A stretch of DNA of 64,000 bases from Candidatus Omnitrophota bacterium (GCA_003154195.1 PMCS01000030.1:123446-187445); one strand, 5' to 3'; shown: positions 16,056-64,000, counted from the first letter of the stretch. Notes: generated by a model not told the origin, from the letters alone. Translations and numbers: made by a program.

Positions 16056-17645
16056 ATGGTTATTCCTGAGCATACCTTGGGCGGATTGAGGGAGAAAAGA
16101 TTGAGAAAATATATTATTACGGCGATTTGTTTATGCATCGCTTTTTTACCGGAGGCGGGATTGCCGCAAGGGGATGTCGATAATATTTATGGCGATTATG
16201 CCATCGGCAAATCTCCCCAAAAAGTTTCCCTGGATCTTAGGGCCGCGAATCTTAATGATGTGTTAAAGATGCTTTCTCGGCAAACCGGCCTTAATTTTGT
16301 TTCCACGGAAACAGTTAAGGAGAGAGTCTTGACTCTGTATATGGATAATGTTCCCTTAAAAGAGGCGATGGATATAATTTTTAAGGCGAATAATTTAGGC
16401 TATGATTTTTATCCGGAAGCGAAGGTATTCGTGGTCAAGGAGCTGGGCAATCCTGCTATTGAAGTAAAAACCAAAGTTTACTATTTAAAATATATAACCG
16501 TCAATTCTTCGAACGTAAAAAGCGTTATTTCCGCCGGCGGCGAAACGGCAAAGACTCCCGGGGGCGGCGGGGGGCCAGGCGGCGGAGCTTCTTCCAGGGG
16601 CGGGGGCGCAGCGGCCGGCGGTTCGGGCGGCAGCCTTACGGATTCATTGAAGAACATGATGAGCGAATTTGGCAAGATATCGGAAGACCCGTTGACCAAC
16701 TCTTTGATTATTACCGATATCCCTACGCGCTTTCCTTTAATCGAGGAGTTGCTTTCCAAGCTGGATGTGCCTATCCCGCAGGTGATGATTGAAGTGGAGA
16801 TGCTTGATGTTTCCAGGGGGCTTATCGATCAATTAGGATTTAATTTTACCAACGGGTTTATCGCTACTTTTACGCCGGGGGGGTTCAGCACGCCATTCCC
16901 GTTGAAGGCTAAAGATAACTTCAACCTGGTTAATAAATTTTCTCCTATTTCTAATCTTGGCACGCCTGGTGGTCTTTTGAGCAACCTTGACTTCAGCAGT
17001 ATGCAAATGGTTATGCAATTTTTGAATAAAGACACTTCAACACGATTCTTAGCCCGGCCCAGGATATTGACTCTGGTTAATGAAAGCGCGGAAGTGGATT
17101 TAACGATGGATGAAGTAGTGAGCGCGGTGGGTACAAGTTCTCAAGGGACCGGACCAGCGGTAACTACTACTACGATTGAGCGAAAAGAAACCGGCACCAA
17201 GCTGACGGTTACTCCCCAGGTTAATCTGGAGACCGGGGAGGTTATCATGTCGCTGAACGTGAGCAACAAAGAATCGAAGATTTCAACCCTTACAGCAGCG
17301 ACTAAAGACATTGAAACGCGCGGCACAAAATCCATGGTACGCTTAAAAGACGGCGATACTCTTTTAATCGGCGGCCTCATCCGGAAAACCGACGAAGATG
17401 CTGTTACGAAAATTCCTTTTATTTCCGAGATACCGGTTTTGGGCAGGTTATTCCGGTATAAAAACACCAATCATACCGAACGTGAACTTTGCGTTTTCTT
17501 AACTCCGCATATAATAATCCCCTCAGCCGGTTCTTCTCCGGAGATTAAAAAGGAAGTTTTCCCTAAAGAAAGTTTTCAAAGGGAACAGGCCAACTACGCT
17601 AAGCAGGATGCCGTAAGGTCTTCGCTGGATAAATTCTCCCGTTAA
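16056..17645 (+). CDS. pilQ: type IV pilus secretin PilQ
   Basis: C-terminal secretin domain (LLIGGLIRKTDEDAVTKIPFISEIPVLGRLF), secretin-N domains and a Gly-rich linker. Confidence 0.85.
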   Translation: MVIPEHTLGGLREKRLRKYIITAICLCIAFLPEAGLPQGDVDNIYGDYAIGKSPQKVSLDLRAANLNDVLKMLSRQTGLNFVSTETVKERVLTLYMDNVPLKEAMDIIFKANNLGYDFYPEAKVFVVKELGNPAIEVKTKVYYLKYITVNSSNVKSVISAGGETAKTPGGGGGPGGGASSRGGGAAAGGSGGSLTDSLKNMMSEFGKISEDPLTNSLIITDIPTRFPLIEELLSKLDVPIPQVMIEVEMLDVSRGLIDQLGFNFTNGFIATFTPGGFSTPFPLKAKDNFNLVNKFSPISNLGTPGGLLSNLDFSSMQMVMQFLNKDTSTRFLARPRILTLVNESAEVDLTMDEVVSAVGTSSQGTGPAVTTTTIERKETGTKLTVTPQVNLETGEVIMSLNVSNKESKISTLTAATKDIETRGTKSMVRLKDGDTLLIGGLIRKTDEDAVTKIPFISEIPVLGRLFRYKNTNHTERELCVFLTPHIIIPSAGSSPEIKKEVFPKESFQREQANYAKQDAVRSSLDKFSR

Positions 17646-17849
17646 TTCGGCTACTGTCTCAATCTACGCCCCCGCCATCCCATAGATGGCGAGGTCTCGT
17701 CAATTCGTTTAACGAATTGACGGACTTCGGGCTTGATTTCGGTGAAGTCTCATTAAATATTTCCTTGCCCCCCGTAGTATTTCTATTATAATAAAATATA
17801 ACCTGGAATATAATTATAAAGCATAGAGTTCTCTTTTCAGGATATCGGG

Positions 17850-17990
17850 GAATCAGGATGTCAGGATTTGGGGATTGGGAAATCGGGGGATTAGGGAAAT
17901 GCCGAAGAAGCGATAGCTGTCAGCCAAATATCCCAATGCCCTAATTTCCAAATCCCAATTGCCTAATATCCTAATTCCTTTATTATTACA
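17850..17990. repeat. long imperfect palindrome built from GGGATT(A)GGG / CCCTAATCC-type short repeats (family B-like)
   Basis: Left arm GGATTTGGGGATTGGGAAATCGGGGGATTAGGG; right arm CCCAATGCCCTAATTTCCAAATCCCAATTGCCTAATATCC. Confidence 0.45.
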
Positions 17991-18041
17991 CTTGGTTAGC
18001 GCCGAAGGCACGCTAAGCTCAGTTAAAGGGGTTATAAACCA

Positions 18042-19751
18042 ATGGCCAGATATAGAAAAATAGGGGATATCCTGTTAGCGGAAGGGATTATCACCGAAAC
18101 ACAAATTAAAGAAGCGATTGCCGCCCAGCAAAAAGAAGGCGGGAAGTTGGGAGAAATCCTGGTTAAGCTGGGATATGTCACGGAAGAGCAAATCGTTATC
18201 GCCTTAAGCAAACAATTATCCATTTCTTATGTTTCCCTTGTCTCGGGAAAATTAAAGCCGGCCGCCGATCAGGAGCTGGAAGAGCTCGTTCCCCACGACT
18301 TTGCCGTGAGAAACCTGGTGCTGCCGCTTTTTCGCAATATCAATTCTTTAACGGTAGTGATGTTCAATCCCCTTGATTTAATCCTCATCGATAATTTAAA
18401 GAAACTGACCGGATGCGAGATAAATCTTATCATATCCACCAAAGCGGATATTTTAAAAGCAATCGAAGCGTTTTACGGCAAAGACAGCCTTTTGAAGGAT
18501 ATGATTGATGCGGCCGCCGGCGATAATATTGTCACCGCGGAGATCCGCAATGTGGCGCAGAGCGATTTAAGCATCGATAAACTTATCGAACAGGCGGAAG
18601 AGGCGCCGGTAATCAAGCTTGTTGATTTGATCATTAAGCAGGCGATTGACGAAAGCGCTTCGGATATCCACATCGAGCCCCAGTTTGATAAATTCAGCCT
18701 GCGCTATAGAATAGACGGTATGCTTTATGAGATGCCTTCCCCGGCCATGTCGTTGTATTCGCCGATCGTATCGAGGATTAAAATACTCTCCAAAATGGAT
18801 ATCGCGGAAAAACGCCTTCCTCAGGACGGAAGCTTTATGGTGAAGATGGGCGAACGGATCATCGATTTGCGGGTATCAAGTTTGCCTACGATTTACGGCG
18901 AGAAGGTCGTCATGAGGATTCTTGATAAAACGCGTATCCCCCTTGATCTGGCAAAACTGGGATTTTTGCCCCAGGAATTGGAGATGATCAGAAAAGGCAT
19001 ATCCTCGTCTTACGGTTTGGTTTTTCTTACCGGGCCTACGGGCAGCGGAAAATCAACGACGCTTTACGCGGCGCTTAATGAGCTGCGCTCGTCGACGACC
19101 AATATCCTTACCGCGGAGGACCCTGTCGAATACCGGGTCGAAGGGATCAACCAGGTGCAGGTTAAACCGGATATCGGCTTGACTTTTGCCACAGCCTTAC
19201 GCTGTTTTATGCGTCAGGACCCCGATATAATCCTGGTAGGAGAAGTGCGCGATTTGGAAACCGCGGAAATCTGCATAAAAGCGGCTTTGACCGGGCATCT
19301 GGTTTTATCTACCCTGCATACCAATGACGCGGCTTCTACTGTCACCCGGTTGGTGGATATCGGGTTGCCCAGTTATCTGGTTACGGCAAGTTTACGTTTG
19401 ATTGTTGCCCAACGATTAATACGTAAACTCTGCCCTCAATGCAAAGAGCCCTATGAGGTTAAGGAAGAAGAAATTCCCAAGGGGGTAAAGCTTAATTCCC
19501 CCGTGATTTATAAAGCGAAAGGCTGTGAAAAATGTAATTTTATCGGTTATAAAGGAAGGATGGTTATCCCCGAGATCATTCTGATGAGCGATGAATTGCG
19601 GGAAGCCATTCATAACAAGTGCAGTCCCGCTCAGTTTATGGAGATAGCCCGGCACAAAGGAACAATGACCCTTTTGGAGAGCGGTATCAAAAGAATCGAA
19701 GAGGGCGCTACTTCTTTAGAAGAAGTTCTTTCTTCGACTACGATATTTTAA
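18042..19751 (+). CDS. pilB: type IV pilus assembly ATPase PilB (GspE family)
   Basis: N-terminal GSPII_E_N domain, Walker A GPTGSGKST and the tetracysteine motif CPQC...CEKC. Confidence 0.9.
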   Translation: MARYRKIGDILLAEGIITETQIKEAIAAQQKEGGKLGEILVKLGYVTEEQIVIALSKQLSISYVSLVSGKLKPAADQELEELVPHDFAVRNLVLPLFRNINSLTVVMFNPLDLILIDNLKKLTGCEINLIISTKADILKAIEAFYGKDSLLKDMIDAAAGDNIVTAEIRNVAQSDLSIDKLIEQAEEAPVIKLVDLIIKQAIDESASDIHIEPQFDKFSLRYRIDGMLYEMPSPAMSLYSPIVSRIKILSKMDIAEKRLPQDGSFMVKMGERIIDLRVSSLPTIYGEKVVMRILDKTRIPLDLAKLGFLPQELEMIRKGISSSYGLVFLTGPTGSGKSTTLYAALNELRSSTTNILTAEDPVEYRVEGINQVQVKPDIGLTFATALRCFMRQDPDIILVGEVRDLETAEICIKAALTGHLVLSTLHTNDAASTVTRLVDIGLPSYLVTASLRLIVAQRLIRKLCPQCKEPYEVKEEEIPKGVKLNSPVIYKAKGCEKCNFIGYKGRMVIPEIILMSDELREAIHNKCSPAQFMEIARHKGTMTLLESGIKRIEEGATSLEEVLSSTTIF

Positions 19752-22441: not shown

Positions 22442-24442
22442 TTATTTTTTCGTTTTTCCGTTTGCTTCGTAAAGTCCGGTAAGAAGCGGGTAAGCCGATA
22501 AAAAATCCGGGTCAAGCTTTATCGCTTTTTCCAGATTTTTTATCGCATCTTCCGGCAAGCCGGTTTTTCTGTATAAAACTGCCAGATTGTAATAAATTCC
22601 CGGCGTTTCATTATTCATCGCGATAGTCTGATTATATTCTTCTATAGCTTTTTTGTAATTGCCCAGCGCGGAATACGCTAGCCCGAGGTTATAGTGCGCC
22701 GGGGCGCTGGGCGTTGTCTGGAGAGATTTTTTCAGATACCGGACAGCTTTCGGGATATCTTGATGATTAAAATAATACATCCCCAGCGCGTTATATACCC
22801 ACTCGTGTTCGTTTTTTAGTTTCGGTTCTATCGCCAGGGTTTTTTTATATAATTTTACCGCTTTTCTAAAATCGCCCGCCATATAATATTCGTCAGCTAA
22901 ATTTTTCCACATCCGCGCGCTTTTCGGCGAGTATCGTAACGTCCGTTTGTAAAAAGCGAGAGGTTCCCGCCAATAATTATTTTGTTGTATCGTGCGGATA
23001 GAATAGAAAATCACCAGCGATAGCGTCAGAAGTATCAACGGCAGTCTTAAATTATTTTTTTTGTATAGAAAGGATAATTTTTCGGCGATAACAAGGAAAA
23101 AACCGATCGAGGGGAGATAGAGCCAGTGTTCAGCCATGTAAGCGTTTATTGGGTAGATATTCGCATAGGGAAGAAGGGTAAGAAAAAACCAGAGAATAGA
23201 AAATGTTACGAGATAATTTTCCTTTCTTTTTTTGAACGCATAAACAAGCAGACCTGAAAAAATAGTTGCGCCGGCAATTATTTTTGCGATATTCAAAGCG
23301 CCGGGGGCTTTGCCGTATTCTACGTGGAGGTTGAACGGCAATATCAATAATTTGAGGTAATCGAGAAGCGCGCAGAAAAAATTAATTGTCCTTACGGTAA
23401 AAGGAGGGGTTTCAACGCCGGCGAGCGGTAATTTTAACAGCGCGTGCCGGGCGATAAGATAAAGGGAGCTTAAAATAAAAAGAAAAAATATTTCTTTTCT
23501 TTTTATTCTCCTTCGCCGAATACCCTGCGGCTTGCCGCAGGGATGAAGGCTCTGCTGCTTGGCTTCGGAGAAATGAAGCTGGATACCCCGCGGCTTGCCG
23601 CGGGGAGAACATTGGTGCTTCATTTTACCGCAGAAAACCGCCGTTGTAAGGCGGCGGATGAATGCGGTAAAATAATCCCGCCGTATTTTGGCGGGATTAT
23701 ACCGGTAAGCCCCCGGCTCTACGAGCCGAAGGGTTCGGAGAGCCACCGGCGTAAGCCGGTGGTAGTTCACTGCCGCGATAAAGGATGGCGCGGTTGTTTT
23801 ACCCGATGGAGAAAGTTTAAGTTGATTGTTTTTTTGATCAAGATAAGCATAGAGAACCAGCAAGGCGGGCACAACGATTACCGACGATTCTTTTGACAAT
23901 AGCGCCGCCAGGTATGAAGCGGTTAACGCGGCGCGCCATCGTAATTCAGGTTCGCGGCAATACTTTATGTAAGACAATAGCGCGAGAAGAATAAATATTG
24001 CCGATAACAAATCGGCCCTGCCGGATATGAAAGAAACTGCTTCCGTGTGAAGAGGGCAGGCGATAAATAATACGCCGGTAATAAACGCGGTCAGATAATC
24101 GCCGGCAATAACAGAAATCAGCCAATATAATAATAGCGCTACGCTTATGTGCAGGAGGATATTGGTTAAACGGTATCCCGCGGGGTTTAATTTCCACAAC
24201 GCGTAGTCGCCGGCGTAGGTTACGATTTCCAGCGGCCGGTAAAAAGCGTTATCCCGGTCTAACCCCCCGGTGATATTAGTTTTGAATACTTCGCCTAAGC
24301 CGTTCCAGCTTCTTATGTGATTGTTGCGGACGACTAAAACCTTGTCGTCCCAGATAAATTTACCGCCCAGCGAGCCGGAATAAATAATAAATCCCAGGGA
24401 GGCGATTAAAAAAAGATGCGCAAAAATATATTTTTTAGCCAT
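22442..24442 (-). CDS. polytopic GT-C-type (TMTC/PMT-like) membrane protein with C-terminal TPR repeats
   Basis: N-terminus GGKFIWDDKVLV... with many TM helices, and at least five C-terminal TPR-like repeats. It contains an atypical GC-rich, hairpin-dense segment (23523-23763). Confidence 0.55.
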   Translation of the reverse strand: MAKKYIFAHLFLIASLGFIIYSGSLGGKFIWDDKVLVVRNNHIRSWNGLGEVFKTNITGGLDRDNAFYRPLEIVTYAGDYALWKLNPAGYRLTNILLHISVALLLYWLISVIAGDYLTAFITGVLFIACPLHTEAVSFISGRADLLSAIFILLALLSYIKYCREPELRWRAALTASYLAALLSKESSVIVVPALLVLYAYLDQKNNQLKLSPSGKTTAPSFIAAVNYHRLTPVALRTLRLVEPGAYRYNPAKIRRDYFTAFIRRLTTAVFCGKMKHQCSPRGKPRGIQLHFSEAKQQSLHPCGKPQGIRRRRIKRKEIFFLFILSSLYLIARHALLKLPLAGVETPPFTVRTINFFCALLDYLKLLILPFNLHVEYGKAPGALNIAKIIAGATIFSGLLVYAFKKRKENYLVTFSILWFFLTLLPYANIYPINAYMAEHWLYLPSIGFFLVIAEKLSFLYKKNNLRLPLILLTLSLVIFYSIRTIQQNNYWREPLAFYKRTLRYSPKSARMWKNLADEYYMAGDFRKAVKLYKKTLAIEPKLKNEHEWVYNALGMYYFNHQDIPKAVRYLKKSLQTTPSAPAHYNLGLAYSALGNYKKAIEEYNQTIAMNNETPGIYYNLAVLYRKTGLPEDAIKNLEKAIKLDPDFLSAYPLLTGLYEANGKTKK
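23523..23763. repeat. cluster of five GC-rich perfect palindromes inside the TPR/GT-C CDS
   Basis: CCCTGCGGCTTGCCGCAGGG, CCCCGCGGCTTGCCGCGGGG, CCGCCGTTGTAAGGCGGCGG, ATCCCGCCGTATTTTGGCGGGAT and CCACCGGCGTAAGCCGGTGG, spaced about 40-60 bp apart. Confidence 0.5.
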
Positions 24443-25124
24443 TTATTTTCCAGCAGATTATTTCTTTGAATGTTCCCCAGATTGTTTTTAAATTAGCTAC
24501 TTTAGATTTACCGCCGGCGCGGGGGAGGTTGACGATGGAGATTTTTTTAAAGCGAAATCCTTGTTGGTAGGCTTTGATCACTAATTCAAAATTGAAGACG
24601 AATCGAGAATTTACGCATATTTTATCAAGAATTTTACGATGGAACAAATAAATCCCTTCGAGTGTGGGAAATTTACCGAAAAGGAGCCGCAATAACAGCC
24701 TTACCCCGGCGGACATGATTTTTCGGAATAATGAAGTATTGCGTTGATGATAAACCGTCGTGACGAAGTCAACGCTGTCGTCAAGCGCTTTCGCGCATTG
24801 GCCAAGCGCGGCAGGTTCGATTTGGCCGTCGGCAGGAAAAAATGATATCCAGCGATAACGCGCCTGCCGGAAACCGTCCGCCAGGCATTTGCCGATACCT
24901 TGTTTGAGCGTATGGGTAATAATAGTTACGTGGGTGTTTTTTTTAGACAGGCGGTCGGCAATTTTTGGCGTTTCATCGGTTGAGCCGTCGTTGATAATAA
25001 TAATTTCGTAGGCGCTGCCGGATATTGTTTGTAATACGGCGTTGACACTTTCCGCAACTTCGCCGAGGGTTTTTTCTTCGTTATAGGCGGGGATAATAAC
25101 CGAAAGATCAATCATAATATTCAA
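24435..25124 (-). CDS. family 2 glycosyltransferase (polyprenyl-phosphate sugar synthase / Dpm1-like)
   Basis: VIIPAYNEE ... INDGSTDET (GT-A DxD region). It overlaps the downstream gene by 8 nt. Confidence 0.8.
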   Translation of the reverse strand: MNIMIDLSVIIPAYNEEKTLGEVAESVNAVLQTISGSAYEIIIINDGSTDETPKIADRLSKKNTHVTIITHTLKQGIGKCLADGFRQARYRWISFFPADGQIEPAALGQCAKALDDSVDFVTTVYHQRNTSLFRKIMSAGVRLLLRLLFGKFPTLEGIYLFHRKILDKICVNSRFVFNFELVIKAYQQGFRFKKISIVNLPRAGGKSKVANLKTIWGTFKEIICWKING

Positions 25125-27058
25125 TTACGAATGGGAAGAACAATTTCGCCGATGGCAACGCTTCCGTCGGGGTTAATCGATTTTTGGCTTATTTTTTGAT
25201 CGAAAGTAAAAAATGTGCCTCTGTCCATCGAAGCTAATGTTAAGAGCAGAGCATATTTTCCTTTCGGTAAGTAACCCGGTATGGTCATAATATAGTAATC
25301 GTTGATAGTTTCGTCTTTTTGCCAGCGCTGGGTAGGATATATTCCATAACAAAGTTGGCGGATAGTTTCGTAGCGGGTTTTGCCGTTCTGGTCGACTAAT
25401 CGGATAAGCATCCCCAGGGTATTGTCATTTGGGTTTAAACAGCGCCAGGTAAAAGAAAATTTAATTGCCGTTGTCCCGCCTGCCTTTACCGGCGAATAAT
25501 TATAATCCTGGAGGCTGATTTTACCGGCAAGCGCGGCTGACGGTGTTTTATCAAATCCGCGTATCTTCGCCGGGATAATTTCGTATAATTTTTTATTGCC
25601 GGGGTGATTTTTTTTAAAAAGGGCGATGCTGTCAATAAAATCTATTACTTGCCAATTATTTCCTTCAAGAAAACGACGCATGTTTAAATCGGAATCAGGT
25701 TTGCGAAAGTATATCGTTGTATAGATATCATTAAAATCAATAAGCGCGTATTCGATATTGTCGGGGATAGCGTAAGGAACCCCGGGCCTCAGTTCGCCCT
25801 GGTAGATATAGTGGAAGGCATATAAGTAGCGCCGGTTCGACAGGTGGCTTAAAAATTCAAAAGTGCTCACAACCGCCGCGTTTTTGGGAATCATGGCAAT
25901 CAAGCGTTGTTTTTGTTTGGCGGTATTTTCTCTCAATAGGAGCACTAATTCTTTATTCATAGAATGGATCGGGCCGTAGATTATGTTGCTGATAATCGGC
26001 AGGATAATAATGTAGGAAAAGATGCGGCGCGGCAGATTGCCGCCGGAAAATTTTAACAAGCCGTATATCGCGGAAATATAAATGAAGGGGGTCATCGCGA
26101 TAGTGTAATGATTGACGATACTATGTTCAGCTATTCGTGTCGAAAGAAGGTGCTGCAGGATATTGAGCGCGCAAATCATTAATTCTTTGAGGGCAAAAAG
26201 AGAAAAGAAACCAGCGGGCATTAATATTTGCAGGATGAAATAACCGTTATCTTCTTGCAATAATGGTTGGAATAATATGGATGGCCGTGTAAGGATATTT
26301 TTAAATATTTCCGGAAAATCTTTTCCTAAATAGGCGTAAAACTGTTCATAGTTTACACCGGTGCGAAAATGCGGCAGAAAAACAAAAATCCCCAGATATA
26401 ACCAGACGAGGCTTATCGTTATGGGCAGTATTGACCAGCGCCACGGTTTTTTATCCAGCGCCGCGTATATTCCTATCATCAGCGTAACCAGGGTCATATC
26501 CAGGCGGCAAGCAATCGTGAGCAGGATACAGGTTATGTACCACCAGAAGCGGTCAGTCTTTAAACAATAAAATGCCCATAACAGCGTCAACCCGGCTAAG
26601 ACTAAATCAAAGTATTCAAAAAGCGCAAGAAACCATAGCGCGGGATATAAAAGATAAGAAACGGCAAACGCGGCGCCTAACCTTGGGGAGTGAGCGTGGC
26701 GGCCGATTAGGAATATCGGCATCGCTCCGGCGGCGAGGATGATTACTTTTATTATCAACATTGCCTGCGGAGAACAAAAAAACAAAGCATAAAGAAGGCT
26801 AAAGGGATAAGCAATAATTTCAATAGCATTACCCCATATCGTGGTATTGTCGATAATCGAAGCGCGGGGGCTGCCATGCAGGATATTCCAATATTTTTGC
26901 AAATGGATGGCAAAATCAAAATCAATATGAGAAAATGAGTTGTATTTCCATAAGCAGATGGCGCTGAAAATCACTGTATAGATCAGCATTCCCAGCAATA
27001 CAATAAAAAAGTATTTTTGTTTTAAAATGTAATTAAACGCTATTTTAAGATTTTTCAT
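25121..27058 (-). CDS. large polytopic membrane protein (DUF2079-like, putative GT-C-type glycosyl transferase)
   Basis: About 12 predicted TM helices plus a C-terminal beta-rich soluble domain. The ORF extends to 27208, but Met 27058 (MKNLKIAF...) is preferred because it leaves a divergent intergenic region. Confidence 0.45.
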   Translation of the reverse strand: MKNLKIAFNYILKQKYFFIVLLGMLIYTVIFSAICLWKYNSFSHIDFDFAIHLQKYWNILHGSPRASIIDNTTIWGNAIEIIAYPFSLLYALFFCSPQAMLIIKVIILAAGAMPIFLIGRHAHSPRLGAAFAVSYLLYPALWFLALFEYFDLVLAGLTLLWAFYCLKTDRFWWYITCILLTIACRLDMTLVTLMIGIYAALDKKPWRWSILPITISLVWLYLGIFVFLPHFRTGVNYEQFYAYLGKDFPEIFKNILTRPSILFQPLLQEDNGYFILQILMPAGFFSLFALKELMICALNILQHLLSTRIAEHSIVNHYTIAMTPFIYISAIYGLLKFSGGNLPRRIFSYIIILPIISNIIYGPIHSMNKELVLLLRENTAKQKQRLIAMIPKNAAVVSTFEFLSHLSNRRYLYAFHYIYQGELRPGVPYAIPDNIEYALIDFNDIYTTIYFRKPDSDLNMRRFLEGNNWQVIDFIDSIALFKKNHPGNKKLYEIIPAKIRGFDKTPSAALAGKISLQDYNYSPVKAGGTTAIKFSFTWRCLNPNDNTLGMLIRLVDQNGKTRYETIRQLCYGIYPTQRWQKDETINDYYIMTIPGYLPKGKYALLLTLASMDRGTFFTFDQKISQKSINPDGSVAIGEIVLPIRN

Positions 27059-27251
27059 ATCATCAACAATACACTGTTTAAAAGGATTAGTCAAGAATTT
27101 TCCGGTAAGAAAATTACGCCGGATAGAGACGGCCAGGTATTCGGCGAAAAGCTTTTTTGTTTTTGTCGTTAGCCTGCCGCTAAACACCTCGCCGGTAATT
27201 TTGCACAAAACAGTTGCAGTTTAAGGTTGGCCGGTGTATTATTATTTCTTG

Positions 27252-55548: not shown

Positions 55549-55932
55549 TTGGGCAGAAATGTTGTATTTTTGTCGCGCTCCCGCAATTTTGACATCAATT
55601 GTGTCGACCCGATACAAAATAATAAAATATCCAATAATCATGAAATAAATCATAGCGGGCGGACACACCGGTCCGCCCTTACAATATCCGGTATAATCCA
55701 ATGGTTTAAAACAATGACAACGAATAAATATATTCAAAATATCGAAAATAATAATTGGTCGTCATTTGTCAAATGTCTATGGCAACGTAATTTCCACGAC
55801 CATGTTATACGTAACGACAAATCGTTGGGTAAAATCCGGGAATATATAATCAATAATCCTGCAACCTGGAATAATGATATTGAAAATCCCGATAGAACAG
55901 GCAGTATGGAATCAAAATTGATTGAGGTTTAA
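55549..55932 (+). pseudogene. remnant (C-terminal part) of a REP-associated tyrosine transposase (RayT / IS200-like HUH family)
   Basis: IQWFKTMTTNKYIQN...WQRNFHDHVIRNDKSLGKIREYIINNPATW matches the characteristic RayT C-terminal segment. No N-terminal HUH motif is present, so the gene is truncated. Confidence 0.45.
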
Positions 55933-59004: not shown

Positions 59005-59075
59005 ATCCGGTTTTTGTTTGAATTTTCTGTTGGCTTTCCGGAGAAACAGAGCTATAATTATTTAGATAGGAGAGG

Positions 59076-62000
59076 ATGATGAATAAAAAAATAATAACCG
59101 GCCGGATGTTATTTTGCGCATTAGCGCTGTGCCTGGTTGCTGTTTTTCAGGTTTTCGCGGAAAATATTATCTTGAAATCCGGGCGCGTAATCAACAAGCC
59201 CGTTATCGAGAAAGGTTACGATTTTATAAAAATCGATTTTGACGAAACGGTTTTAAAATTCTATTATTACGAGATTGCCAGCATTGATGGTAAGAGCGTT
59301 GAGATATTTACCGCGCCCGCCGAACAAACCGCCCAAGAAATTCCTGCCGCGGCTAACGCCGGAGAAGGAACCGCTAACCCCGAACCCGTAAAGAAAGAAA
59401 CGGCAGATAAAGATAAGCAAACGGTTGAGTCGCCGGCAGAAGGGCAAAGCGCAAAAAGCGCAGGGGAAAGCGTAAAACCGGAAATTTCCGAAAAAGATAA
59501 AGAAGCCGCCGATGCCGGGCAGCAAGCCCCGGCGTTATTTCCTGCGCCGGTGAGCGAAAAAGTTACGGCGCAAATTACAGTTTCTCCTGATTCTCACGGC
59601 GGCAGCCTCGCGGAAGAAATAGAAGTTCTTAAAAGAGAAATCAAGGATAAAGAAGATGAGCTGGCGCGGTTGAAGGCGGATTCGGCGGAAAAAGATAAGC
59701 TCACCGCTTTGTTGAAAGAACAGAATGAAGCGTTCGCGGCAAAAGAAAAAGACATTTTTTCCGGTACCGTTCGTTTCAACGATGAAATAAGCCGTTTATC
59801 CCAGGAGCTCGAGGCGGTTAAGAAATCGTTAAGGGATAAGGAGGACGATTTGGCGCAGGAAAAAAGCCTTTCGTCCGATAAGGATAAGCTTATCGCCGGT
59901 TTAAAAGAGCAGGTCTCCGCTTTTTCTTCCACGGAGCAGGAGCTGAATACTACTCTCAACCGGGCCAATTCCGGCATGATCGGCCTTGCCGAGGAATTGC
60001 AGGGATTTAAGAAAAGCCTTAAGGAAAAAGAAGCGGCGCTTGAGGAAATGAAACAACAGGCAGGGGGAAAGGACAGGGCTCTCGCTCATTTGCAGGAAAA
60101 AGCCAATTCGGCGGCAGATAAAGAAAAAAATTTCGATTCTTCCCTGGACGAAGCCGGCAGGAAAATTGCCGAACTTACAAAAAATAATGAAACCCTGACA
60201 GCCGATTTAAACGCGAAAAGCGCAAACCTTAATGAAGAGGCGGCAAAGATTTCCCGGAAGGATAAGATTATCGAAGACCTCAGCGCCAGGCAGGCCATCC
60301 TTTCGGAAAAAGAAAAAGAAAGTACCGATATTATAAATAAACTTAACGTTCAGCTCTCCGGTTTGTCCCGGGATATCGCTTCGTTTAAAAACGGCCTTGA
60401 GGCGAAAGATAATCATTTGCGCGAAAACGAAGGAAAATTTATCGCTAAGGACGAGCTTATCGCGAACCTCGCGGAAAAAAATAAAACTTTATCCGAGAAG
60501 GAAAAGCAATTGGCTGAGAACCTCGCGCGGGTAAACGCTGACTTAGGAAATATTTCCCGGGAAAGGGAAGCGTTAAGAAAAAGCGCCGGGGAAAAAGAGG
60601 CGGCGTTATCCCGTCTTGATAAAGATTTCTCCGATTTGTCGGCAAGAGAAAAAAATCTTAACGCGCAATCGGCAAAATCAAACGCCGTCGCTGAGAGCCT
60701 GGCAAATAATATCGATTCGTTGAAGAAGGAGCTCGGCGTAAAAGATAATGTTATCAACGAAATAAACGCTAAGTCAAAGGATAAAGACGCCGTCATCGTT
60801 TCCCTGCAGGAAACCAACGCGCAGTTTGCCGAAAAAGAAAAGGGATTGTCTTCTTCTCTGGCCCAGGCGGGGCTTAGCCTTTCCAATTTTTCCCAGGAAG
60901 TCGGCGCCCTTAAAAAAGTGATTCAAGCTAAAGATGACGCCATCCGGCAGGAAAAAGACCAATCCGCCGCAAAAGATAAACTTATCGCTTCGTTGAGCGC
61001 GCAGAATGAAAATATTCTCCGGAAGGAGGCGTTGATTGAGTCGAATTTCGATAAAGCGGGAGAAAGCATTTCTGCGCTTACGAAAGAAATGGAAACTCTT
61101 AAGAAAGACTTAAGCGCCGCGGAATTCCGCTACAAAGATGAAGTGGCACGTTCCCTGGAAAAAGATAATTCGCTCGAAGCCTTGAAAGCGCAGAGCGCCG
61201 CTGTAATCAAAAAGAACGACGAATATGAAACGACCGCCCGGGCGCTTAATTCAAAGCTGGAGAGTTTATCCAGGGAGATGGAAGATGTAAAAAATGAATT
61301 GGCGTTAGAGAAATCCCGTTCGCGGGATAAAGATAAACTGATTGTTGCCTTTAAAGATGAAAATGTGCGCGTTCTTTTAAGCGAGAAGGAATTATCCGCT
61401 AAATTTGACCGGGCCAATTCGCGCGCCGGCATTTTAGAAAAAACTTGCGGTGAAAAAGACGCTCAAGCAATCCAAAAAGATAATTTAATCGCGGGCTTGC
61501 AGAGTCAGAATAATGTTCTGGCGAAAAAGGCGGAGAGTGTGGCGGTAACGCTCGCGCAATCAAATCTAAGCGTTTCTCATTTCGCTAAGGAACTGGAAAA
61601 TTTTAAGAAAGAATTCAGTTTCCAGGGAGAAGCGATAAAAGCCAAAGACAGCCAGATCTCCCAGAAGGATGCAGCCCTCTCGGAGCTCAGCACTAAGCTC
61701 GCGTCTCTGACCCAGGAAAAGAATAACCAGCTTAACGAAAAGGAAGGTATCATCTCGTCTATTCCGGCAAAAGATAAGCTTATCGAATCTTTAAGGGGGC
61801 AGAATGTTGAATTGTCCAGGAAGAGAGAAGAGCTTAACGCCGAAACAGCCAGGCTTAATTCAGAAACTTCGCGTTTTACCAAAGAGATAGGCGCGCTTAA
61901 AGAAACCCTTGCGTCTAAAGACGCCGTTTTATTCCGGTCGGATGCTCAGGCTGCGGAGAAGGATAAGACTATCGCTTCGCTGAAAGAAGAAGCGGCTGCC

Positions 62001-63680
62001 GCTATTCAGAAAGGCGGCGCGATCACCGGGCTTAAGGGCCAGATCTCCCAGAAGGATGCAGCCCTCTCGGAGCTCAGCACTAAGCTCGCGTCTCTGACCC
62101 AGGAAAAGAAAGCCTTAGACGATACAGCGGCTAAATTAAACTCGGAGATCAGCCGTCTGTCCGGGGACAGAGAAGCTTTGCGAAAAGATAACGAGACTAA
62201 AGATAAATTGCTCAAGGAAAAGAATAACCAGCTTAACGAAAAGGAAGGTATCATCTCGTCTATTCCGGCAAAAGATAAGCTTATCGAATCAAAAGATACA
62301 GCTATCGCCGGTTTACAACAGCGTTTTAATGTTCTTGCGGCGGATAAAGACAGCCTTTTAGGAAAACTTAATGAGGCGGCGAAAAAAATCGATAGTTTAG
62401 AACGATCCACTACTTCTTTGCAAAAAGATACCGCCGGGCGCGAGAGTTTAAATAAGAAACTTCAGGCGCAGATTTCCGTCAACGATGAAGCAATCGCCGC
62501 TTTAAGAAAACAGGCCGATGCCGGCGCGGAAAAAGATAAGTTATTGGCCGTCGGGAAAGAAGAAAGGCAGAAATTTTTACAGAAAGAAAATAATTTGAAA
62601 GAGGAATTAGCTAAAGCCGGTTCCGAGATCAATCGCCTGAATGGAGCGTTGAATACCGGCCGGGGTGATCTTTTAACGCAGAGCGGGCAAATCCAGAAAC
62701 TTGAGGAGCAAGCCGAGGGAAAAGATAAGCTTTTGGCCGCCGCGAATCAACGCAATGACGTTTTATCCCGTAAAGAAAAAGATTCTGCCGCGGCGGTTTT
62801 CCGTTACGAAAATCTTGCTAAAGAGCTTGAGTCGGTAAGAAAAGATTTTGCGGGTAAAGAAACGGCTTATAAAGAAAAGCAGGCAAGATCTTTAGAAAAA
62901 GACAGCTTGATCGCGGAACTTAAGGCGCAAAATGCCAATCTTGCGAAAAAGGAAAACGATATTAACCGGAGTTTCACGAGCGCTAACCTGGAGATCAACC
63001 GTTTGTCGGCCGACCTTGCTGCGGCGCGTAACGAGATTAAATCCAAAGAGGGAATATTACAACGGTTGAGCAATCAGTCGCAGGGCCGGCAGGCGGTTGC
63101 CGCGACGATAAAAGGGCAGCAGCTGGCCGGGGGTTCTTCTCCGTCTAAAAATACCGCCGGTAAGGCCGGCGATAAGAACGAGGCGTTATTCTTATATGAA
63201 GAGATAGGAAGGCTTAACCGTAAGCTGGAAACAGACAGCAATATTTTAAAGGCAAAATACGGCCAGTCTCTGAGAAAAGACAAAGTGATTGACGATTTAA
63301 AAAATGAGATTACCAAAATGATTGATGAGTATAATGATGAGAGTGTGGCAAAAGAAAAAAATGTGGCCCAATTAAATAATCGAATAGCAGCTTTATCGAA
63401 AAGCAAACAAGATTTAGCCGGCGAGCTTGACGCGGTTACCGACGAAATCGGCCGTCTTACTGCCGCTTTCGTCGAGGAAAGCAAAACCGAAGATTCATCG
63501 AAGTTTTCCGGAGAAGCGCCAGCCGGCGCCGGCCGGTTGCGGAACATCTCCCGGTTAATTGAAGAAAAAGATAAGCAGATTGGGGAAAAAGAGAAACAAA
63601 TAGAATATTTAAAGAAAGTTATTGCCGACGTGATGGCAAAAATGAAGGTTGCTTCCGGCGGGGATTCGGCCGGCAGGTAA
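59076..63680 (+). CDS. giant (1534 aa) secreted coiled-coil repeat protein
   Basis: Signal peptide and a small N-terminal domain, then a Glu/Lys/Ala-rich region with more than 20 degenerate repeats carrying (E)KDKLIAxLKxQN motifs. Exact internal DNA duplications (61653-61789 versus 62040-62110 plus 62218-62288). Confidence 0.7.
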   Translation: MMNKKIITGRMLFCALALCLVAVFQVFAENIILKSGRVINKPVIEKGYDFIKIDFDETVLKFYYYEIASIDGKSVEIFTAPAEQTAQEIPAAANAGEGTANPEPVKKETADKDKQTVESPAEGQSAKSAGESVKPEISEKDKEAADAGQQAPALFPAPVSEKVTAQITVSPDSHGGSLAEEIEVLKREIKDKEDELARLKADSAEKDKLTALLKEQNEAFAAKEKDIFSGTVRFNDEISRLSQELEAVKKSLRDKEDDLAQEKSLSSDKDKLIAGLKEQVSAFSSTEQELNTTLNRANSGMIGLAEELQGFKKSLKEKEAALEEMKQQAGGKDRALAHLQEKANSAADKEKNFDSSLDEAGRKIAELTKNNETLTADLNAKSANLNEEAAKISRKDKIIEDLSARQAILSEKEKESTDIINKLNVQLSGLSRDIASFKNGLEAKDNHLRENEGKFIAKDELIANLAEKNKTLSEKEKQLAENLARVNADLGNISREREALRKSAGEKEAALSRLDKDFSDLSAREKNLNAQSAKSNAVAESLANNIDSLKKELGVKDNVINEINAKSKDKDAVIVSLQETNAQFAEKEKGLSSSLAQAGLSLSNFSQEVGALKKVIQAKDDAIRQEKDQSAAKDKLIASLSAQNENILRKEALIESNFDKAGESISALTKEMETLKKDLSAAEFRYKDEVARSLEKDNSLEALKAQSAAVIKKNDEYETTARALNSKLESLSREMEDVKNELALEKSRSRDKDKLIVAFKDENVRVLLSEKELSAKFDRANSRAGILEKTCGEKDAQAIQKDNLIAGLQSQNNVLAKKAESVAVTLAQSNLSVSHFAKELENFKKEFSFQGEAIKAKDSQISQKDAALSELSTKLASLTQEKNNQLNEKEGIISSIPAKDKLIESLRGQNVELSRKREELNAETARLNSETSRFTKEIGALKETLASKDAVLFRSDAQAAEKDKTIASLKEEAAAAIQKGGAITGLKGQISQKDAALSELSTKLASLTQEKKALDDTAAKLNSEISRLSGDREALRKDNETKDKLLKEKNNQLNEKEGIISSIPAKDKLIESKDTAIAGLQQRFNVLAADKDSLLGKLNEAAKKIDSLERSTTSLQKDTAGRESLNKKLQAQISVNDEAIAALRKQADAGAEKDKLLAVGKEERQKFLQKENNLKEELAKAGSEINRLNGALNTGRGDLLTQSGQIQKLEEQAEGKDKLLAAANQRNDVLSRKEKDSAAAVFRYENLAKELESVRKDFAGKETAYKEKQARSLEKDSLIAELKAQNANLAKKENDINRSFTSANLEINRLSADLAAARNEIKSKEGILQRLSNQSQGRQAVAATIKGQQLAGGSSPSKNTAGKAGDKNEALFLYEEIGRLNRKLETDSNILKAKYGQSLRKDKVIDDLKNEITKMIDEYNDESVAKEKNVAQLNNRIAALSKSKQDLAGELDAVTDEIGRLTAAFVEESKTEDSSKFSGEAPAGAGRLRNISRLIEEKDKQIGEKEKQIEYLKKVIADVMAKMKVASGGDSAGR

Positions 63681-63689
63681 TTTAACTAC

Positions 63690-64000
63690 CATTTTCGGGG
63701 ATAGTCCAACTACAAGTATTTTTTTGCGTCTTCGGTACAAATATCTAAATTTCACTAACCCCTTCGCTTCGCTCCGGGGTAATTCAACTACCGTTTCAAT
63801 CTGCGTTCTTCAGGCTTGATAATTCAACTAAGCCCGGAGTACCGGGCAAGTTTCATTACGGCGAAGTTTCAAACTCATTACCCTTCGGCTCCCTTCGGTC
63901 GCTCAGGGTAATTCGACTACAGCCTCTCGCTTCGCTCTTCCAGAGCTTGCGCTCGGCTAAGTCTCATTATAATAAATTGCTGCCCACTTCCGCAAGTTGA
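63690..64000. repeat. repeat family C array (at least three units ending GGGTAATTC(G/A)ACTAC ... CGGCTAAGTCTCATTA)
   Basis: Shares CCCCTTCGCTTCGCTC(A/C)GGGGTAATTCGACTAC and GGGGATAGT(T/C)CAACTACA motifs with 11728-11990. Confidence 0.5.

Follow-up and report, generated by a model that had tools for sequence, protein, structure and literature searches.

Thermotoga Omp-alpha and the Braun lipoprotein Lpp are exported coiled coils that set or bridge distances within the envelope, and the streptococcal M proteins are secreted dimeric coiled-coil fibres whose internal repeat blocks recombine and vary in number. In Vibrio cholerae, CrvA is described as a periplasmic coiled-coil-rich 'periskeleton' polymer (PMC5502672; PMC8938487). 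The Omnitrophota, an uncultured phylum with cells of ~0.2 µm, have been proposed to live as predators or parasites, attaching by means of pili and large proteins (PMC10066038). Their cell biology is little known, published work on their unusual proteins centres on giant multi-domain ORFs, and the word 'coiled' is absent from two Omnitrophota genomics papers, PMC10066038 being one of them. A sequence-only reading of the locus analysed here had stated that fibre, ruler or cytoskeleton-like proteins of this kind are poorly described in this type of lineage, which is fair for its Omnitrophota-like host.

Results

The window, i.e. the whole stretch of DNA that was analysed (64,000 nt; GCA_003154195.1, PMCS01000030.1:123446-187445), contains a complete coding sequence of 1534 aa plus stop at 59076-63680 on the plus strand, as had been reported. 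A sigma-70-like promoter candidate, put forward on 10 of 12 consensus matches (TTGGCT-17-TATAAT, 59030-59058, +), lies in the 71-nt gap downstream of a DUF1667 gene; it is followed by a Shine-Dalgarno AGGAG and adjacent ATGs at 59076 and 59079 (59068-59081, +), the second of which is better spaced from the Shine-Dalgarno and yields a 1533-aa form (P0001). The gene is surrounded by others for glycerol catabolism and housekeeping functions; the window also encodes a secretin and a PilB/GspE ATPase, ~40 kb from the coiled-coil gene and unlinked to it. The host is an Omnitrophota-like diderm, as indicated by the secretin and by an Omnitrophota-like EF-G.

The protein starts with a predicted signal peptide (aa 1-28; 59076-59159, +), its one N-terminal hydrophobic segment, which has no lipobox and a putative SPase I site, VFA-EN; the FA-E junction is kept across 46 sequences with the same N-terminal module, in agreement with the claim that the product is secreted. 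The small N-terminal domain noted earlier is, in the AF2 model, a six-stranded beta-barrel of 46 residues (aa 29-74; 59160-59297, +) with a pLDDT of ~95, the model as a whole reaching 85, and structure comparison with Hfq and designed SH3 barrels (TM 0.7, rmsd 1.1 A) places it among the small beta-barrels. The homology search that had been advised for the N terminus returned NF047433 ('LA_0442/LA_0875 N-terminal domain'), with 22 bits when the full-length sequence was used and, for aa 1-100 on their own, 26.8 bits (E 3e-6), where the cut-off is 43; 45 of the 46 module relatives detected by phmmer match the same model (best E 8e-11). By these scores the module is a remote relative of NF047433 rather than a curated member. 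It is widespread, other carriers having TPR, protease (Trypsin_2) or short helical bodies; it has no Pfam model, and our literature search returned no published function. The barrel is followed by an acidic Pro/Ala/Glu-rich linker of ~110 residues (aa 75-185; 59298-59630, +) with 10 of the 15 prolines of the protein, which is presumed to be disordered from its composition and across which, at aa 81-100, the AF2 pLDDT drops to ~62-69.

Beyond the linker we observed an alpha-helical rod of ~1340 aa in total, in which ~20 degenerate units of 63 aa (189 nt, nine heptads) extend over aa 186-1462; the lag-63 identity of the protein is 19%, compared with 8.8 +/- 1.6%. The main part of the rod (aa 186-1340; 59631-63095, +) has ~18 of these units and would measure ~171 nm if fully extended, while a Gly/Ser-rich break (aa 1341-1372; 63096-63191, +) separates it from a second, shorter coiled-coil segment (aa 1373-1465; 63192-63470, +). 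Five perfect units succeed one another at aa 186-500 (59631-60575, +), and AF2 predicts in this segment a helix without interruption over 265 residues (segment residues 2-266, ~four units) and no bundles. The hydrophobic period is exactly 3.50 (power 15.5), LIVMF occupancy is 0.65 at a and 0.62 at d when compared to 0.07 at other positions, and the ~1340 aa include 4 prolines; with the AF2 helix, these are the properties of a canonical heptad coiled coil. The heptad-like repeats claimed before are thus borne out, and they are more regular than claimed since they follow a 63-aa unit, in which the motif KDKLIAxLKxQN recurs as described. A single heptad register is unbroken over ~790 residues (aa ~211-999; 59706-62072, +), where the motif-to-motif spacings (63, 49, 56, 35 and 98) are all multiples of 7; there are 13 of them between aa 206 and 962, five of which are not 63. 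On the evidence of the gene itself, indels in whole heptads show selection for an uninterrupted coiled-coil phase. Of the 18 core positions in each unit, 4 have conserved polar or charged residues (K d7, K d21, N a32 and E a39), an unusual feature if the rod were a simple homodimer in register, and a charge-stagger scan of the rod gave no clear signal of lateral assembly. The predicted length of the rod, ~170-200 nm if fully extended, is about one cell diameter for Omnitrophota.

The sequence-only reading had also reported two 71-bp segments repeated exactly 387 bp downstream, with a 107-bp insertion between them. The exact repeats are real and the first offset is 387, but the segments measure 73 and 76 nt. 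Copy 1 is a contiguous 139-nt block (aa 859-905; 61651-61789, +) in heptad phase with both flanks. The first part of copy 2 (73 nt; 62038-62110, +) is 100% identical to 61651-61723 at the offset of 387 and the second part (76 nt; 62215-62290, +) is 100% identical to 61714-61789 at an offset of 501; in copy 1 the two share 10 nt (AGGAAAAGAA) and so form one 139-nt block. An insert is indeed present in copy 2, with 104 unique nt (62111-62214, +) that encode canonical unit columns ~40-63 and a net length of 114 nt or 38 codons, in frame; it is flanked by the 10-nt direct repeat AGGAAAAGAA (62101-62110 and 62215-62224). The second part of copy 2 ends within a conserved KDKLIE motif and abuts another motif (KDKLIES-KDTAIAGL), and all duplication junctions are in frame. 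The next-longest exact match within the gene has 15 nt and 100 codon shuffles give at most 19 nt, which places the duplication far beyond chance. Since the duplicated blocks are 100% identical while canonical units share 46% DNA identity (37-53%), the duplication is recent. The GC-rich codon usage attributed to the duplicated segment applies, weakly, to its first half (GC 57.5%, GC3 78%, z about +2.7), which with a codon-usage z of -2.05 is not the most atypical part of this gene. In the second half, which is AT-rich (38% GC), codon usage is typical (z +0.39).

An exhaustive search of 1.84 billion representative proteins gave two true relatives only, P0006 (E 3e-31) and P0008 (E 3e-14), so that the family amounts to 3 clusters among these representatives; with the sequence patterns used, no member was found in 185,579 species genomes. 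Both relatives have a signal peptide, the unit motif of the query in 66-aa units, and its C-terminal tail (aa 1487-1534; 63534-63677, +), a short amphipathic helix with the pattern K.I..[KR][ED]K.I.YLK.VI.....K.K..SG. The tail lay outside the search query, and its conservation therefore supports a real family. Neither relative has the N-terminal beta-barrel, which is therefore not essential to rod function. The relatives are 875 and 1207 aa long and the query 1534 aa, and P0006 holds its own young 198-nt tandem array (86% identity). Taken from these searches, this is a real orphan family, extremely sparse and fast-evolving, a pattern that would be more usual in proteins exposed at the surface or interacting with a host than in core scaffolds of the envelope. 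The suggestion of recent duplication and ongoing turnover stands in kind, with 100% against 46% identity, the P0006 array and the different family lengths; the length polymorphism suggested with it was not seen, as all assemblies covering the region give an identical protein.

We also compared the protein with known systems. As stated before, there is no enzymatic domain in Pfam or NCBIfam. SMC models (TIGR02168/TIGR02169) gave 103.6 bits against a cut-off of 567 and 66.4 against 729, at coiled-coil arm positions only, and neither the head motifs ([AG]xxxxGK[ST], hhhhD[ED] and LSGG, sought in the whole protein) nor a Pfam SMC_N or hinge domain were found; an SMC identity is essentially refuted. 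The crescentin rod (Pfam PF19220) gave 17.7 bits against 100, and the query has a signal peptide at aa 1-28, while the Mycoplasma helix-rich protein model (TIGR04523) gave 91.3 bits against a cut-off of 270. A Gram-positive M-protein-type fibril was rejected since there is no LPXTG and no C-terminal hydrophobic segment, and the host is a diderm; a trimeric autotransporter or outer-membrane-anchored fibre, since the C terminus has no YadA_anchor, autotransporter or other Pfam domain; and a phage tape-measure or fibre protein, with 0 PHROG families, no tblastn match in 50,697 phage records and non-phage neighbours. The range proposed earlier (periplasmic or surface fibre, ruler or cytoskeleton-like protein) was the right hypothesis space, and it can be narrowed to a predicted exported, extended rod with no SMC, phage, autotransporter or LPXTG features.

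Discussion

We give about even credence to the view that the product is exported by Sec and serves as a non-enzymatic structural fibre in the envelope of this Omnitrophota-like diderm. Once cleaved at VFA-EN, the protein would form a parallel, probably dimeric, coiled coil, as suggested by a d position that is mostly Leu, an a position that is Ile or Leu, and the recurrent Asn at a; the rod, at ~170-200 nm if fully extended, would reach about one cell diameter. The beta-barrel, on its flexible tether, may serve as a shared module for envelope targeting or anchoring, and the conserved C-terminal tail as a site for partner binding or end-to-end assembly. We lean slightly towards a scaffold or 'periskeleton' retained in the periplasm, like Vibrio CrvA or an envelope spacer, over a surface fibre, given that the only export signal is of the Sec type and that no signal for outer-membrane translocation or anchoring is recognisable. 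Such a 170-200-nm rod could not span the periplasm and would need to run lengthwise within it. Whole heptads are probably gained and lost as the rod evolves, so that the coiled-coil phase would be kept; very recently, a rearrangement between repeat motifs probably made the second copy of the 139-nt block and brought the first register shifts into the rod, and the 114-nt indel with its 10-nt direct repeat is consistent with a microhomology or slippage signature.

Alternatively, the rod may cross the outer membrane and project up to ~200 nm from the ~200-nm cell as a fibril or adhesin that contacts prey or host, being exported e.g. via the type II secretion/type IV pilus-like machinery of the window; reshuffling of the repeats would then vary its length or antigenicity, as it does in the streptococcal M proteins. 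The orphan, fast-evolving character of the family, its different lengths (875, 1207 and 1534 aa), the recent intragenic rearrangement together with the young tandem array of P0006, and the secretin and PilB/GspE ATPase of the window all fit with this, as does the proposal that Omnitrophota are predators or parasites attaching by pili and large proteins (PMC10066038). Nevertheless, we regard a surface fibril as rather unlikely: the protein has no adhesin, lectin or dockerin, no autotransporter barrel, no LPXTG and no further known signal for surface anchoring or passage through the outer membrane; its N-terminal module also occurs in periplasmic-type TPR and protease proteins; its gene is unlinked to the secretion genes, ~40 kb away; and the available assemblies show no polymorphism.

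The duplication itself could be false, the product of a chimeric or strain-mixed contig over a gene that truly has one copy of the block. The sequence derives entirely from short-read assembly of metagenomes, L001 matches the window base for base and is therefore the same contig, and metagenome scans gave no independent contig across the duplication. Yet the contig name, k141_3007447, implies a final assembly k-mer longer than both repeats (73 and 76 nt) and even than the whole of copy 1 (139 nt), so that single k-mers or reads should cover each junction and its unique flank. In addition, NCBI, ENA and GEM contigs (three length classes) and one of 54 kb from JGI encode exactly the same protein. 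The in-frame junctions, the perfect heptad phase of copy 1 and the 10-nt direct repeat that bounds the indel, a biological signature, likewise speak against an artefact, which we hold to be very improbable. Even harder to credit is the idea that the protein stays in the cytoplasm, SMC-like or cytoskeletal, and is anchored to the membrane by its hydrophobic N-terminal stretch. It would agree with the sub-threshold matches to SMC, Rad50, JetC and LmuB models and to the crescentin rod, and with the label 'chromosome segregation ATPase' given by JGI to fragments P0003 and P0004; these matches, however, cover coiled-coil arms only and are far under the cut-offs (e.g. 104 bits against 567), Walker A, Walker B, signature motif and hinge are all absent, a conserved cleavage-site-like FA-E junction and a beta-barrel directly follow the hydrophobic helix, and P0006 and P0008 likewise begin with signal peptides.

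For these putative predators or parasites, the gene offers a cleanly defined, predicted exported and purely structural protein with a predicted length that matches the cell diameter. If it is a filament of the periplasm, it would join CrvA as a rare second bacterial 'periskeleton'; if a surface fibre, it is a candidate host-contact organelle. A bolder proposal, which we consider distinctly doubtful, is an unrecognised envelope filament system of ultra-small Omnitrophota, either a periskeleton with ~200-nm rods around a ~200-nm cell or a prey-contact fibre tuned in length by recombination of nine-heptad units, with the beta-barrel as a general envelope-targeting tag for secreted TPR scaffolds, proteases and fibres. 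The barrel, which recurs in many secreted proteins, is in any case a small and tractable object of study, and the database mislabel 'chromosome segregation ATPase' is corrected. Long coiled-coil proteins are common, and a structural role that is predicted does not overturn current understanding.

Among known systems, the SMC/Rad50/JetC arms share a generic coiled-coil profile similarity with the query, which accounts for the label on the fragments; the query differs from them by having no ATPase head motifs or hinge and by being, as predicted, exported rather than cytoplasmic. Crescentin and bacterial IF-like proteins also have a long heptad rod without enzymatic domains and weak profile similarity, but crescentin is cytoplasmic, has no signal peptide and shows another domain layout. 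The N-terminal module of the query (signal peptide plus small beta-barrel), with its score below the cut-off, is remotely related to the domain of the Leptospira LA_0442/LA_0875 (NF047433) proteins; the other carriers of the module have TPR, protease or short helical bodies without a giant coiled coil. Unlike Omp-alpha and Lpp, the query has no SLH domain, lipobox or membrane anchor, and its rod of ~170-200 nm is far too long for a perpendicular periplasmic ruler. With the M proteins it may be compared as a secreted coiled-coil fibre with recombining internal repeat blocks; it differs from them in having no LPXTG/YSIRK, a diderm host, a predicted rod ~3-4x longer and no binding domains identified. 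Finally, by architecture rather than by sequence comparison, the protein can be likened to CrvA, the periskeleton polymer, in that both would be Sec-exported, coiled-coil-rich and structural outside the cytoplasm of a diderm (PMC5502672; PMC8938487), the query being set apart by its far greater length, its regular 63-aa unit, its small N-terminal beta-barrel and its distinct C-terminal tail.

Architecture of the putative fibre protein

The open reading frame lies where the sequence-only reading had put it (59076..63680, + strand) and encodes a 1534 aa protein. Two adjacent ATG codons are present at the gene start with an AGGAG Shine-Dalgarno sequence 5' of both, and the databases hold the protein as 1533-aa and 1534-aa forms. 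A σ70-like promoter candidate that matches the consensus at 10 of 12 positions (TTGGCT-17-TATAAT, 59030-59058) is located within the 71-nt gap 3' of the DUF1667 gene. The sole hydrophobic segment of the protein spans aa 5-35, an SPase-I-type cleavage site (VFA/EN) is predicted after residue 28, and a lipobox was not found in the protein. An AlphaFold2 model of aa 1-100, run with a 46-sequence alignment (mean pLDDT 85), displays a signal helix (aa 4-26) followed by a compact six-stranded β-domain (aa 29-74, pLDDT ~95). Foldseek assigns this domain to the small-β-barrel fold class (SH3/Sm-like) with Hfq and de novo 'sh3' barrels as the best matches (target TM ~0.7, rmsd 1.1 Å over 43 residues, E ~4e-3), and these matches, made with a predicted model, indicate fold class only and nothing on function. 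The linker that follows (aa 75-185) is acidic and Pro/Ala/Glu-rich, contains 10 of the 15 prolines of the protein and is presumed to be disordered from its composition; AlphaFold2 pLDDT goes down to ~62-69 across aa 81-100.

The N-terminal ~70 residues are matched at 35-50% identity by ~75 otherwise unrelated secreted proteins in a search of 1.84 billion cluster representatives. Among 46 of these that we examined, the bodies behind the module are TPR arrays (12/46), trypsin-like proteases (3/46) or short helical domains, and all but one (45/46) match NCBIfam NF047433, 'LA_0442/LA_0875 N-terminal domain'; the window protein scores 26.8 bits against this family, under the cut-off of 43. No Pfam family covers the module, a literature search on LA_0442, LA_0875, LB_137 and PTPDL gave nothing relevant to it, and a functional clue was not found in the genomic contexts of two of its carriers. 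With aa 1-100 as query, a word-indexed search across 5.8 billion proteins gave no usable match, and the PDB sequence search gave one insignificant match for aa 1-200 and none for the whole protein.

From residue 186 onwards the heptad-like repeats proposed earlier are borne out, with a hydrophobic period of exactly 3.50 and a clear a/d core: within the unit, LIVMF residues occupy 65% of a, 62% of d and 7% of the other positions. Identity at lag 63 is 19% vs a background of 8.8 ± 1.6%, most other top lags being multiples of 7, and an HMM of the 63-aa unit tiles ~20 units over aa 186-1462, the first five of which are perfect 63-mers. One heptad register is kept from about aa 211 to 999. The motif-to-motif spacings over aa 206-962 are 63, 63, 63, 63, 49, 63, 63, 63, 56, 49, 63, 35 and 63; since all are divisible by seven, units have been shortened by whole heptads only, which argues that a continuous coiled-coil phase is maintained by selection. 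In an AlphaFold2 model aa 186-500 form a single uninterrupted 265-residue helix without folded-back bundles (pLDDT 75), and spectrin-like three-helix-bundle beads were rejected on this basis. At 0.1485 nm per residue, the computed extended length is ~171 nm for aa 186-1340 and ~199 nm for aa 186-1525. Of the 18 core positions in each unit, four carry conserved polar or charged residues (K d7, K d21, N a32 and E a39), which would be odd in a simple in-register homodimer, and a charge-stagger analysis for lateral assembly gave no convincing preferred stagger. The main rod ends at a Gly/Ser-rich break (aa 1341-1372), followed by a second short rod (aa 1373-1465), another break and a conserved C-terminal helix; a profile search with the C-terminal tail had zero matches.

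A probable recent duplication inside the rod

The exact internal DNA repeats described by the sequence-only reading exist, with a geometry that differs slightly from the two 71-bp segments and 107-bp insertion it had given. A contiguous 139-nt block (copy 1, 61651-61789, + strand) recurs downstream on the same strand in two pieces (copy 2), one of 73 nt at 62038-62110 (offset 387) and one of 76 nt at 62215-62290 (offset 501). In copy 1 these pieces share the 10-mer AGGAAAAGAA as an overlap. In copy 2, 104 unique nt lie between them, giving a net insert of 114 nt (38 codons) that keeps the reading frame; this 114-nt difference is flanked by a 10-nt direct repeat. An exact duplication of this length far exceeds what chance would give: outside it the longest exact repeat of the gene measures 15 nt, the maximum in 100 codon shuffles is 19 nt, canonical units aligned in register have 46% (37-53%) DNA identity, and identity falls abruptly at all four duplication boundaries.

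The GC-rich codon usage ascribed to the duplicated segment applies to its first half (GC 57.5%, GC3 78% vs a gene mean of 49 ± 11%) and not to its second half, which has 38% GC and typical codons. The first half is not the most atypical codon-usage window of the gene, and its z of -2.05 points weakly to a foreign origin of the block. Separately, the duplicated SSIPAKDKLIES segment holds two of the four prolines of the ~1340-aa rod (aa 897 at window ~61764 and aa 1064 at window ~62265), so that the block is structurally atypical for the rod too.

Copy 1 continues the unit and heptad phase of its two flanks perfectly (motif spacings 63, 35, 63). Copy 2 matches the phase of neither flank: at its left edge the motif-like KGGAITGLKGQ is directly followed by ISQKDAAL, at its right edge a truncated motif adjoins another one (KDKLIES/KDTAIAGL), and the first register shifts of the rod coincide with it. 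The duplicated block spans roughly one conserved motif to the next, and these motifs are the best-conserved DNA between units (62-82% identity). Our reading is that the duplication probably arose through recent recombination between repeat motifs, either illegitimate or over short homology, together with an indel of the slippage type. Alternatively, it may represent two patchy gene-conversion tracts.

That the assembler created the duplication is unlikely, because repeats of 73, 76 and even 139 nt are shorter than the k = 141 inferred from the contig name and because the identical protein is encoded by contigs of three size classes (NCBI, ENA and GEM) and by a 54-kb JGI contig. To the credit of an artefact, the database contig carrying the gene (L001) is the window's own contig (0 mismatches in 14,922 nt) and thus no separate witness. 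An exact 42-mer of the GC-rich block had 0 matches in JGI metagenome contigs, and a protein-based metagenome scan retrieved only one other contig, L086, which covers aa 150-715 only. The length polymorphism proposed earlier was not observed among the NCBI, ENA, GEM and JGI contigs. L086 (Ga0182022_1260582), from a second metagenome, carries a frameshift-ridden copy of the same gene, which explains the odd 77-aa and 95-aa 'relatives' P0007 and P0009 with their scrambled C-termini.

A rare family with repeat turnover

The full-length query, searched by word index against 5.8 billion proteins, matched the protein itself and nothing else. The exhaustive HMMER search, run with aa 1-1200 against 1.84 billion cluster representatives, yielded 92 matches at E ≤ 1e-3, which separate cleanly into a rod group and an N-terminal module group. 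The rod matches comprise only P0006 (1207 aa, E 3e-31), P0008 (875 aa, E 3e-14), the frameshifted fragments P0007 and P0009 of the protein's own gene, and generic coiled coils. We discarded P0010 (4364 aa) and the lower coiled-coil matches, which on inspection are generic coiled coils or proteins with 14-aa xKDxxIAxLNxQ repeats, without the unit and the tail.

Judged by their sequences, P0006 and P0008 are true homologues of the window protein. Both have N-terminal signal peptides and have in common with it the unit motif ENKxIxxLQEKLK … KExEL … ANKEIYxL … YLKKEL and a C-terminal tail, K.I..[KR][ED]K.I.YLK.VI.....K.K..SG, which lies beyond the query span; both are without the β-barrel and the linker. 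Their unit is a strictly regular 66 aa (198 nt) vs 63 aa in the window protein, and their hydrophobic period is 3.47 (66/19, with 19 core positions per unit) vs exactly 3.50. Each 66-aa unit adds a single 3-residue core step to nine heptads; a hendecad geometry was rejected, the period being 3.47 and not 3.67. The three proteins form one family with differing coiled-coil geometry.

Within the P0006 gene, at 2300-2986 of contig L002, 3.5 copies of the 198-nt (66-aa) unit form a young tandem array with 86% identity. This array is a recent repeat expansion, and repeat turnover is a family trait. The recent repeat expansion put forward earlier is seen twice, in the exact duplication of the window gene and independently in P0006. 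A scan of GTDB species genomes based on the family alignment returned 600 pattern matches, none of which was a true relative. Long coiled-coil proteins are common; this one belongs to an uncharacterised, very rare family inside a well-known structural class.

Genomic surroundings and host

The same-strand genes upstream are glpK, a RAYT fragment, a GlpA-like dehydrogenase, a pyridine-nucleotide oxidoreductase and DUF1667, and downstream are REP-like elements, an opposite-strand PIN-PhoH gene and a SWEET transporter; none of these neighbours suggests a functional link to the coiled-coil gene. Several antisense ORFs of 90-157 aa occur inside the gene (59253-63547, - strand; e.g. 60413-60886 and 63074-63547), and with their Ser/Phe/Leu-rich products they look less like genes than like by-products of a coding strand rich in GAA/AAA coiled-coil codons. 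We also observed a dispersed intergenic element of ~60 nt that contains an inverted repeat (ATTACCC...GGGTAAT; CTCATTACCCTTCGGCTCCCTTCGGTCGCTCAGGGTAATTCGACTAC is one example), in 3-4 copies just downstream of the gene and again beyond PIN-PhoH (window 63680-64000; L001 14699-14862 and 16380-16446). It looks like a REP/MITE element and is without an Rfam match. The 127-aa C-terminal fragment of a REP-associated tyrosine transposase (RAYT, 55549-55932, + strand), between glpK and the GlpA-like gene, fits these elements; it matches NF047646 at profile positions 71-131 of 146 (E 2.8e-9, 37 bits, cut-off 80) and had no match in a Pfam search.

The window EF-G (TIGR00484, 1072 bits) has a best identity of 70-72% to MAG proteins, mostly labelled Candidatus Omnitrophota, with some binned as Planctomycetia or Auribacterota; on this basis we place the host among Omnitrophota-like PVC bacteria, with no species representative close to it. 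A gene cluster for a type IV pilus / type II secretion system (16056-19751, + strand) encodes a secretin (PilQ/GspD-like) and a PilB/GspE ATPase whose N-terminal domain is of the c-di-GMP-binding MshEN type (NF053729, E 2e-19). A secretin together with this ATPase implies an outer membrane, and the cluster shows the host to be a diderm with pilus or secretion machinery. A PMT-like glycosyltransferase with C-terminal TPR repeats (666 aa) and the adjoining DUF2079 membrane protein (695 aa; 22442-27208, - strand) may constitute an envelope glycosylation locus. In a synteny check, rod and N-terminal module were both absent from 80 Omnitrophota loci within 10 kb of EF-G, and the P0006 and P0008 genes are found in unrelated contexts.

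Known classes and proposed role

Matches to SMC-type ATPases fall on the coiled-coil arms only and far under cut-off, and Walker A, Walker B, signature motif and hinge are all missing from the window protein. Its JGI fragments, P0003 and P0004, are publicly annotated 'chromosome segregation ATPase', a coiled-coil-driven mislabel since the ATPase motifs are absent. The predicted signal peptide and the absence of enzymatic matches in Pfam and NCBIfam uphold the earlier description of a secreted product without an enzymatic domain. Crescentin (17.7 bits vs a cut-off of 100) was rejected and is cytoplasmic, unlike the predicted-exported window protein. An M-protein-type fibril was set aside because the protein has no LPXTG and the host is a diderm, and an autotransporter or an OM-anchored fibre of another kind because Pfam shows neither a barrel nor any other domain at the C-terminus. 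A phage tape-measure or fibre was rejected, with no PHROG family and no match in the phage collection, and PADLOC matches to JetC/LmuB are confined to coiled-coil arms.

Altogether, the analysis shows a predicted-exported, apparently non-enzymatic protein with an extended heptad coiled coil and conserved end modules, notable for its heptad-preserving evolution, cell-sized length and reusable N-terminal module; its function we can only infer. Coiled-coil rules link parallel dimers to Leu at d positions and to Ile/Leu and Asn at a positions, by which the rod would be a parallel dimer of ~170-200 nm. As Omnitrophota cells measure ~0.2 µm (PMC10066038), the rod would be about one cell diameter long, far too long to stand across the periplasm, so that it would either follow the envelope or extend outwards from the surface. 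In the periplasmic reading favoured below, the β-barrel would act as a tethered anchoring module and the C-terminal tail as a site for partner binding or assembly.

The main rival to a periplasmic location is a surface or host-contact fibre with variation driven by its repeats, and both the extremely sparse, rapidly evolving family and the predatory or parasitic lifestyle proposed for the lineage speak for it. We slightly favour a periplasmic scaffold, because the protein carries a Sec signal only and its N-terminal module is common to periplasmic-type TPR and protease proteins. Such a scaffold, or 'periskeleton', would work like Vibrio CrvA (PMC5502672).
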